The notes under the pieces: generated by a model | Database searches by the model: none | Told to the model about the DNA's origin: nothing | What the model saw: only the letters and a program-made list of their open reading frames with translations | Position numbers and translations under genes: made by a program | Origin: Candidatus Acidiferrum sp. | GTDB taxonomy: Bacteria; Chloroflexota; Dormibacteria; CF-121 | Reading direction: 5' to 3' | Length of the DNA stretch: 64,000 bases | Assembly (NCBI GenBank): GCA_035602395.1 | Contig: DATNMH010000005.1 | Coordinates: forward strand, 13,009-77,008 | Part shown: positions 60,675-63,332 of the stretch, piece after piece | Numbering within the stretch: the first letter of the stretch is position 1 | Layout of the letters: the number at the start of each line of letters is the position of its first letter

Positions 60675-63332
60675 CTAGTTCCCGCGTCTCCGGTCGAGGT
60701 TGGCGAACTTCGTTTGCTCATCGATGAAGAGCAGCTCGAGTTTTCCTGTCGGGCCGTTGCGATGCTTCGCAATGATGATCTCGGCGATATTGCGACGGTC
60801 CTCCGCGATGTTGTCGTTATAGAAGCGCTCACGGAAAATGAAGAGGACCAGATCCGCGTCCTGCTCGATTGAGTTATGGACGACCATGTTTCCTGCAACA
60901 AAGTTGTGCAGATTGTCGACCGTCAGGTCATAAACCTCATCCTCCCCATCGGGTTCGACTGAGGCAACCATGTCCCAGTAGACGTCGCTCGATGCAATAC
61001 TCATTAGCTCGTCGGAGCCCACAACTGTCGCGAGGCGGGCCGCCCTCTCCCGACTCAGATTTTGCTTGTAGAGCGTCGTGCCGCAGTAGGCATTTCCAAG
61101 TTCGGCTTGCATTGCGCGACTGGTCAGGCCTGCCGCTTGCATTGCCGGCACAGCAATCGTCCTCCAGACTTCGCTGGGGATTACGTCGCGATTCGTGTTC
61201 GCCACCCGAAAGGCCACGTACGTCGATATCGCCGACATCTGCATCGATTTCGAGGCGCCGAGACCGCCAACCTGCGCGACGAATCGTTCGACGTCGGCTT
61301 TTCCAGTCACTTCGACGTGGTACTGGTCCCGGCCTTTAAGACCCTGTGAGTGCCGCGTCATCCGCGCGTTGATTTCCAATCGAAGCAACAGGGATTGGAC
61401 GTCTCGCGCCAGCCGGGCGCTGCTCGACGCGTAATAGATGTTGGCATAGTGATCTCCGCCCGTGGACAAGATGATGCATCCGTCCGTCGACCAGAGATGC
61501 CTCAAGAAGCGGGCGATCTGCGGCGGCGGTTGTGTGAAGACCTTCTCTGGTACAAACTTCTCGTACGAGCGCAGCCCAAATACACCCAACTCGTCGAGCC
61601 ATTTCGCAATAGGATTGCGAACGCCGTGCGTCAAACGGCGCGTCGACGAAAGATAAACCTGGTACCAATCTCGTTCACGGTTGATACGCGGGCTAATCGT
61701 TCGAGGAAACACGCGGGCTGCCAACTCCGCGACGGTTTGTGCCAGACCGAGATCATTTGTCGTGTATTGCTGAACATGTCTGGGCAGTGTGCAGTCGTCG
61801 CCGATTAGATGGCCGAGTAAGGCAAGCTCGTCGTCACTCATCGTTTGGCCCGTCGGCCCGATTAGCCGACGGGGGAGGGCCACACGATCTCCGTGCCTCA
61901 ACTCGTCCAGTCGGCGCCAGCCCTTGATCGTCAGGAATTTGTGGTTTGCCGTTGCGCGGACGCAATGACCAAGCTGAGTCGTCAATCGAAGTACCGGCTT
62001 ATTGCCCGTGCTGAAGGCGTTCTCAACCCGGCATCGTTCCAATTCCCAGGTGTTCGTATTCAGGGCTAGGACACGGAAGCCCACCTGCCCAACGAGCTGA
62101 GCGATTGGCCGGTAGACGCCCAAGTCAGGCAGGTAAACGGGAGTGTCTCCAGTCAGACAACCGGACTCACGCAGATCGGCAAGCTGAGGCCGGTGATCGG
62201 GCCGCTTCTCAGGCTCACGGCTTAGCTGGGAGCAGGCGATGATCGGTATCTGGAGCTCGCGTGCCAGGCTCTTTAACGATCGTGAGATATCTGAAATTTC
62301 CTGCACCCGGTTTTCCTGGTTACGCCCCTGCATCAACTGCAAGTAGTCGACGATGATGAGCCCCAGATTGTTTGCCGATTTCAAGCGACGTGCCTTCGTG
62401 CGCATCTCCATCACGGAAATGCTCGGCGAATCATCGATGTAAATCTGCGCTTCCGAGAGGGAGCCCATCGCCTGTGCGATTCGAGGCCATTCCGCGTCTT
62501 TCAACAGGCCGGTGCGCAGGCGATACGAATCAACGGACGCCTCGCTACAGAGCAGTCGCGTGACCAATTGCTGCTCCGACATTTCGAGCGAGAAGATTGC
62601 AACCGCAACCTTGTATTGGATCGCCGCGTGCTGGGCGATATTCAAGGTCATCGAAGTTTTCCCGATTCCCGGCCTGGCAGCAATAATGATCAGGTCTGAC
62701 TTCTGGAAGCCGCCGGTCTTCGCATCGAGGTCGTTGAAACCACTGGGCACGCCCGAAATGACGGATGAGTCCTTGTGGATCTGCTCGATCTGATCCCAGG
62801 TCGCCTTCAGAATGTCCTTGAGCGCGACGAAGTCCTGGGTGATGCGGCCTTCCGCGATGTTGAAGATGACGCTCTCCGCGGTATCGAGCGCCTGGCTCGC
62901 GGGCGTGCTCTCGTCGAAGCCAAGGGCCGTGATCCGTCCGCCGGCGCCGATCAGCTTTCGCTTGGTGGCGCCTTCCTCGACGAGGTGGCCGTAGTACTCG
63001 ACGTTGGCCGCCGTCGGGACGCCACTCTGGAGCTCGGCGAGGAAGGCCTGGCCGCCGATACGCTCCAGCACGCGCATCGTCTCCAACTCGGCAGCCAACG
63101 TGAGCAGATCGATGGGGTCGGCACGGTCGTACAGGTTCAGCGCCGCGCGATACACCTGCGCGTGATGGTCGAGATAAAAGTCCTCCGGACGGAGGAAGTC
63201 GGCCACCCGCACGATCGCGTTGCGATCGAGCATCAACGACCCGAGGACCGAGGCTTCCGCCTCGAGGTTGTGCGGCGGCACGCGGCCACCGGCCGCCGGC
63301 GGGGCCGGCGTACGTCTCAGGTCAACTGTCAA
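60675..63332 (-). CDS. dnaB: replicative DNA helicase DnaB, intein-containing precursor (885 aa)
   Basis: DnaB N-domain, Walker A GIGKTS, and H4 motif DLRESG | intein | [14 protein letters not shown]. Confidence 0.9.
60873..62159 (-). mobile_element. DnaB intein (429 aa) with LAGLIDADG homing-endonuclease domain
   Basis: Begins CLTGDTPV (Cys1) and ends VVHN followed by Ser+1. Block B ([10 protein letters not shown]) and LAGLIDADG-like motifs ([21 protein letters not shown]). Same insertion site as the Synechocystis DnaB intein. Confidence 0.8.

Follow-up and report, generated by a model that had tools for sequence, protein, structure and literature searches.

Motif H4 of the replicative helicase DnaB has been known as an intein insertion site since the 1990s. 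DnaB is the commonest intein host among bacterial proteins, with 317 inteins falling into ten clades and occupying three sites (PMC4760082). Two of these, sites a and c, are separated by two residues (PMC4760082) and lie in motif H4, the DNA-binding loop (PMC4760082, PMC6195587). Structures are available for the DnaB inteins of Synechocystis sp. PCC 6803 (Ssp DnaB; PDB 1mi8, variants 6frg, 6frh and 6fre) and Nostoc punctiforme (Npu DnaB; 4o1r), and the mycobacterial site-a inteins, DnaBi of M. tuberculosis and DnaBi2 of M. smegmatis, to which we compare by description, are class 1 elements that contain a homing endonuclease, interrupt motif H4 and are followed by Ser at position +1 (PMC6195587). 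Here we analyze the dnaB gene of a 64-kb stretch of contig DATNMH010000005.1 (the window), the product of which is interrupted by a 429-residue insert. In our estimate the insert is, with a probability of roughly 0.93, a class 1 intein with a nested two-motif LAGLIDADG homing endonuclease, belonging to the allelic family of DnaB motif H4. It is a new, hitherto undescribed member of a very well-known intein family, and departs from the textbook case only in the polymorphism of filled and empty alleles among close relatives and in a unique Gly122Asp substitution.

The insert comprises residues 392-820 of an 885-residue precursor, the product of the sole long open reading frame (ORF) of the region. 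The initial annotation, made from the sequence alone, had placed it between DLRESG and SIEQDADLV, and its coordinates match ours to the base (Table 1). DnaB without the intein is 456 residues long, with a reconstituted junction that reads GATCTGCGTGAGTCCGGT|TCAATCGAGCAGGACGCG; this predicted spliced protein is colinear with ten intein-less syntenic DnaBs, and 85-95% identical to them from end to end.

Family assignment is supported by several independent models. Pfam Intein_splicing matches the insert alone at 5e-29, above its gathering score, and the NCBIfam models intein_Nterm and intein_Cterm (TIGR01443) match above their cut-offs. The curated NCBIfam model NF005852 (886 profile positions) carries an insert at the same profile position as the window intein; the whole protein scores 1211 bits against it, with the cut-off at 780, and the intein alone scores 584 bits over profile positions 398-826. 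The endonuclease is detected by Pfam LAGLIDADG_3 at intein residues 214-298 (1e-20; 74 bits, cut-off 22.5). The best sequence matches in PDB are the Npu DnaB mini-intein 4o1r (7e-41) and the Ssp DnaB mini-intein 1mi8 (2e-30) with its engineered variants, and the Mtu RecA intein is also among the matches; the halves of the splicing domain that align with the solved DnaB mini-inteins are intein residues 2-103 and 384-429. Scores of this order for Intein_splicing, LAGLIDADG_3 and the two mini-inteins exclude a chance match. They also bear out the likeness to the Synechocystis intein proposed in the initial annotation, and extend it to Nostoc. The strings quoted there were nearly right: Ssp DnaB aligns as ...KATANHRFLTIDGW... 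and ...NFVANDIIVH, and the version with 'HNFVAN' belongs to the Nostoc intein (LHNFVANNIIVHN). Homologues of the intein at E<=1e-10 number more than 1255, all of them combining DnaB_C, LAGLIDADG_3 and Intein_splicing; 57-88% identity extends over 100% of the intein length.

Conservation of individual residues was examined in an alignment of 175 inteins of the DnaB DLRESG|S site, collected by protein search and from fetched loci. Cys1, Asn72, His73, Asp121, Lys201, Asp411, His428 and Asn429 are present in all 175 sequences, and Thr70 and Asp226 in 174; the window intein has every one of them. The four splicing blocks (A, B, F and G), the endonuclease blocks C, D and E and a putative block H can be traced through the insert, as expected of the full-length intein that the initial annotation had called, and the two LAGLIDADG-type motifs it had seen are found at intein residues 112-124 and 215-229. 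The nucleophile Cys1, the block B TxxH motif (T70-A-N-H73), the block F Asp, the C-terminal His-Asn pair and Ser+1, which is also found in the four closest intein-bearing relatives, are those of a class 1 intein, and splicing would most likely follow the class 1 pathway.

An AlphaFold2 model of the intein, built on 41 sequences, has a predicted local distance difference test (pLDDT) score of 89.8 and a predicted template modeling (pTM) score of 0.87. Its best structural matches in PDB are the full-length TliVMA intein (7qss; TM 0.73), PI-PfuI (1dq3), PI-TkoII (2cw7) and PI-SceI (1vde), with TM scores of 0.52-0.73 over the whole group. In all of these, as in the window intein, a HINT domain is interrupted by a two-motif LAGLIDADG endonuclease; they differ from it in having unrelated hosts and insertion sites, 13-20% sequence identity and other accessory DNA-binding parts. 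The modeled splicing domain superimposes on Npu and Ssp DnaB, with which it shares 44-58% of residues, at 0.6-0.7 A, or at 0.6-1.9 A when the Mtu RecA intein is included. The modeled endonuclease core resembles the monomeric LAGLIDADG enzymes I-DmoI and I-Tsp061I (TMt 0.62-0.70); it consists of helix-strand repeats between residues 109 and 297, followed by six helices. The second half of its pseudo-symmetric α-β-β-α-β-β-α fold is canonical; in the first half, the place of the first hairpin is taken by a short stretch of low confidence (residues 121-136), residues 121-130 being the least confident block of the model (pLDDT 59). As modeled, the insert has both the HINT fold and the LAGLIDADG fold.

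The window intein shares with Ssp and Npu DnaB the host protein, the junction and the class 1 residues. The junction in the cyanobacterial loci is DLRESG|C...HN|SIEQDAD, with Gly at -1 (compare the 'G-1F' mutant in the title of 6frg), and most cyanobacterial alleles are, like the window intein, 429 residues long; the full-length ones are about 50-56% identical to it at the level of the whole protein. From the cyanobacterial junctions, we take the insertion site most probably to be 'a' in the InBase/Novikova scheme, and not site c two residues away. The differences are that Ssp and Npu DnaB were solved as mini-inteins with the endonuclease removed, whereas the window intein is full length; that their hosts are Cyanobacteria, and the host of the window intein is Dormiibacterota-like; and that Asp at position 122 is found in the window intein only.

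Table 1. Features of the dnaB locus and larger genes elsewhere in the window (positions within the 64-kb stretch; residue numbers are those of the intein unless stated otherwise)
Feature	Position	Strand	Remarks
dnaB precursor gene	60675..63332	minus	885 codons + stop, TTG start; ORF list, Pfam, NCBIfam
N-extein	62160..63332	minus	DnaB residues 1-391; ends ...ADLRESG (motif H4)
Intein	60873..62159	minus	429 aa, Cys1 to Asn429
C-extein	60678..60872	minus	65 aa, SIEQDADLV...; first residue is the +1 nucleophile Ser, codon 60870-60872
N-terminal splicing (HINT) subdomain	61845..62159	minus	Residues 1-105; 4o1r residues 2-98; root-mean-square deviation 0.6 A over 95 columns
Block A	62130-62159	minus	Cys1
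Block B	61929-61961	minus	T70, N72, H73
Homing-endonuclease domain	61008..61844	minus	Residues about 106-384; LAGLIDADG core, then helical C-terminal extension (about 300-390)
Block C, first LAGLIDADG motif	61788..61826	minus	Residues 112-124; catalytic Asp121 (LIGDDC), 175/175
Intein codon 122	61794..61796	minus	GAC (Asp), family GGC (Gly); single G-to-A, adjoins catalytic Asp
Block D	61536..61568	minus	Lys201 and Pro204, both 175/175
Block E, second LAGLIDADG motif	61473..61517	minus	Residues 215-229; catalytic Asp226 (WSTDGC), 174/175
Block H-like segment	61359..61418	minus	Assigned by reading of the motif
C-terminal splicing subdomain	60873..61007	minus	Residues 385-429; 4o1r residues 103-142; TIGR01443
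Block F	60894-60938	minus	D411, H418
Block G	60873-60893	minus	GNMVVHN, His428-Asn429
rplI (ribosomal protein L9)	63329..63775	minus	Upstream neighbor; Pfam Ribosomal_L9_N and L9_C; stop overlaps dnaB start
purA-like (adenylosuccinate synthetase)	59341..60672	minus	Downstream neighbor; name read from translation; starts 2 nt after dnaB stop
Transglutaminase-like protein	19026-21578		
GAF-GAF-adenylate/guanylate cyclase	27005-28696		
Lon protease	35165-37651		
TldD/PmbA pair	40424-43206		
Two family-5 solute-binding proteins	43329-46811		

Relatives were scanned with each species represented by a single genome, and 80 dnaB loci were recovered. An insert with the junctions DLRESG|C...HN|S(I/L)EQD, 422-438 and mostly 429 residues long, was found in 69 of them, in Cyanobacteria, Ktedonobacteria and other Chloroflexota, Dormiibacterota and Melainabacteria, so that the insertion point is indeed the classical one for DnaB, as had been suggested. 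The 14 closest loci are labeled mostly as Candidatus Dormiibacterota or 'Chloroflexi CF_'. The purA-like gene lies directly downstream of dnaB in all 14 (82-94% identity) and rplI lies upstream in 13, the remaining locus (L003) ending short on that side. Conservation of the rplI-dnaB-purA arrangement indicates that we are dealing with a helicase gene of the chromosome rather than with a stray paralogue.

At this syntenic locus the intein is present in four of the 14 relatives (L001-L004) and missing from the other ten, which read RESG-(S/T/G)(I/L)EQD; the search for empty sites that the initial annotation had called for is thus answered. The closest relative by all three genes, L057, has an empty site, with identities of 96% for L9, 94% for the purA-like protein and 95% for the DnaB extein. 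In a neighbor-joining tree of exteins the intein carriers occur in three separate places. This scatter across the host tree makes doubtful the proposal that the intein would be a useful phylogenetic marker. Identity to the window intein is 88% in L001, 89% in L003, 70% in L002 and 56% in L004, and the matching exteins are 89-94% identical; the lower values for the intein indicate either a higher rate of evolution than in its host or a history that is partly its own.

Two observations on these loci may be added. The empty allele of L057 (6001-7365) reads RESG-GIEQDSD, with Gly at +1 in place of the usual Ser or Thr, and its junction has the largest number of nucleotide differences from the reconstituted window junction, 13 of 36. 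Intein splicing is impossible with Gly at +1, and the L057 allele may for this reason be immune to productive invasion. Furthermore, many cyanobacterial and two Ktedonobacteraceae loci (L045, L049-L056, L059, L061, L066, L070, L072, L074, L076 and L078-L080) give a longer dnaB match, 3.3-3.9 kb against 2.6 kb, which suggests a second, upstream insertion, possibly an intein at the P-loop site b (PMC4760082).

The chemistry of splicing by class 1 inteins is established. Applied to this locus, it would begin with translation of the 885-residue precursor, followed by an N-S acyl shift at Cys1, aided by T70 and H73 of block B, and by trans-esterification, in which Ser+1 would attack the thioester to give a branched intermediate. 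Cyclization of Asn429, aided by His428 and by D411 and H418 of block F, would release the 429-residue intein, and an O-N shift would rebuild ...DLRESG-SIEQDAD... within motif H4, to give the normal 456-residue DnaB. Since the insertion interrupts motif H4, the DNA-binding loop, the unspliced precursor is expected to be inactive as a helicase. Homing would begin when the free intein, or the precursor, cleaves an intein-less dnaB allele across the insertion point by means of Asp121, Asp226 and Mg2+; the cut allele would acquire the intein on being repaired with an intein-bearing copy as template. That splicing and DNA cleavage occur, we infer from homology to characterized inteins; patchy presence and absence in close relatives and purifying selection on the endonuclease domain give homing indirect support.

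This selection was gauged by Nei-Gojobori estimates of the ratio of nonsynonymous to synonymous substitutions (dN/dS) between the window and L001 and L003, which came to 0.075 for the endonuclease domain, 0.09-0.15 for the splicing domain and 0.02-0.05 for the extein. The low value for the endonuclease indicates that it was kept by selection until recently, as expected of an element that is still homing. A search of phages with the intein found no close full-length relative; its matches were inteins of 20-25% identity in terminases, helicases and other phage genes. The DnaB-like helicase of Planktothrix phage PaV-LD (HQ683709.1:4787-5209) has an apparent mini-intein, without endonuclease, that is 61% identical to parts of the splicing domain, and this may be relevant to movement of the DnaB intein family between hosts.

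Several observations weigh against our reading of the insert, or at least against the homing that goes with it. For recent horizontal homing, as opposed to repeated loss, the evidence is no more than suggestive. In the comparison with L001, dS is 0.62 for the intein and 0.99 for the extein, the order that would fit transfer after the split of the hosts; these are rough values near saturation, and GC content at third codon positions differs between the two parts (0.67 in the intein, 0.78 in the extein). We do not claim a recent transfer of the intein, since the dS values are near saturation and third-position composition is unequal. There is also no co-conversion tract in the extein flanks, as divergence between the window and L001 or L002, taken over stretches of 30 codons, has no clear drop at the junctions. 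As a side observation, total GC content is 0.61 in the N-extein, 0.58 in the intein, 0.55 in the C-extein and 0.655 in the window; dnaB as a whole is thus poorer in GC than its surroundings, and the low value of the intein is no simple signature of foreign origin. Finally, position 122, next to the catalytic Asp121, is Gly in 173 of the 175 aligned inteins and Asp in the window only, so that the first motif reads LIGDDC and not LIGDGC. The canonical Gly after the catalytic Asp is retained in the second motif and missing from the first, which bears on activity of the endonuclease, not on homology.

The substitution is the main argument for a different state of the element, in which splicing continues but the window strain has already lost endonuclease activity in whole or in part, as in the late part of the homing cycle ('fixed, then decaying'), and the intein persists only because it is rarely deleted with precision from an essential gene. 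We regard this as possible, though the less likely state. Glycines of the LAGLIDADG motif permit tight helix packing and the turn at the active site, and the change at 122 adjoins Asp121 and is unique among the 175 aligned inteins. It is a single GGC-to-GAC change on a terminal branch, as relatives with 91-93% intein identity keep Gly122; Asp122 recurs in two deposited copies of the same protein, P0127 and P0128, with 100% identical inteins. It is thus probably a real substitution at the strain level and not a read error, and may mean an impaired endonuclease in the window strain. Against decay, both catalytic Asp residues and Lys201 are intact, the domain is free of stops, frameshifts and deletions, and its dN/dS is no higher than that of the splicing domain, so that any loss of function would be very recent; the model still folds at high confidence, even if its weakest block includes position 122. 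A change elsewhere in the endonuclease is seen in P0125, a member of the 90% cluster of the window protein and 70% identical to the window intein over the covered part, in which the block E region is replaced or deleted; P0125 is either an allele with a decaying endonuclease or the product of a frameshift or misassembly close to the end of a contig.

We think it improbable that the intein has come to serve its host as a conditional switch, whose cysteines would hold back splicing, and with it helicase activity, during oxidative or metal stress. DnaB inteins of Mycobacterium smegmatis are documented to splice conditionally (PMC6195587, PMC7360933), and the window intein interrupts a DNA-binding motif of an essential enzyme and has six cysteines (positions 1, 43, 66, 123, 228 and 359). 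However, the published redox switch is a class 3 intein of the P-loop site b, not an intein of the H4 site (PMC6195587), no sequence feature of the window intein points specifically to regulation, and the element is dispensable, to judge from the closest relative and nine others that lack it at the same locus. A slightly bolder version, in which a redox- or metal-sensitive splicing switch gates helicase maturation and Gly122Asp marks the point at which a mobile element became an immobile, domesticated regulator, appears to us more improbable still. We give next to no weight to the insert being nonfunctional, whether as a dead in-frame insertion into a pseudogene or paralogue of dnaB or as an artefact of assembly: nothing within the 64-kb window supports this, the splicing residues are invariant in the family and all intact here, purifying selection on the extein is strong, synteny with rplI and purA is conserved, and the identical protein has been deposited from several assemblies. 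A group II intron, an IS element and a gene fusion were considered as well and ruled out, as the insert is in frame and stop-free, has intein termini and matches an intein model from end to end.

A class 1 intein with a nested endonuclease at this site extends the documented host range of the DnaB intein family, as our literature search found no paper mentioning inteins together with Dormibacter. The general biological weight of the finding is small, given a common and well-understood element. Its main use may lie in the filled and empty alleles, with exteins 85-95% identical and at one syntenic locus, which form a natural data set for the homing cycle of gain, fixation, endonuclease decay and loss. 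There is also a point of annotation: the exact DnaB protein of the window is already in GenBank (HXN03368.1), under the name 'replicative DNA helicase', which is silent on the removal of half of the protein after translation.

HXN03368.1 comes from a metagenome-assembled genome (MAG) labeled 'Candidatus Acidoferrum sp.', presumably a genus of Acidobacteriota, and yet the rplI, dnaB and purA-like products are 94-96% identical to those of Candidatus Dormiibacterota / Chloroflexota MAGs. Either the contig may be mis-binned or the record mislabeled.

The precursor matches the Pfam DnaB N-terminal and DnaB_C domains above their gathering scores, and its score with TIGR00665 of NCBIfam is 565 bits. 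Its TTG start at 63332 overlaps the rplI stop as TTGA. Other deposits call a protein of 868 residues, and hence a start 17 codons further along, which by length would be Val18 (63281-63332). We favor TTG, because the first 17 codons are conserved among relatives at the amino acid level with changes in third positions; over the N-terminal 30 codons, eight differ from L001 in the third position, with the amino acids kept.

Elsewhere in the window the larger ORFs, between 19026 and 46811, look like ordinary chromosomal genes (Table 1), none of them with an intein, and scans of the window for tRNA genes and Rfam families found nothing. A tandem-repeat scan returned one weak repeat only, two copies of a 24-nt unit with 82% match at 61455-61500, inside the endonuclease region, which is probably due to chance.

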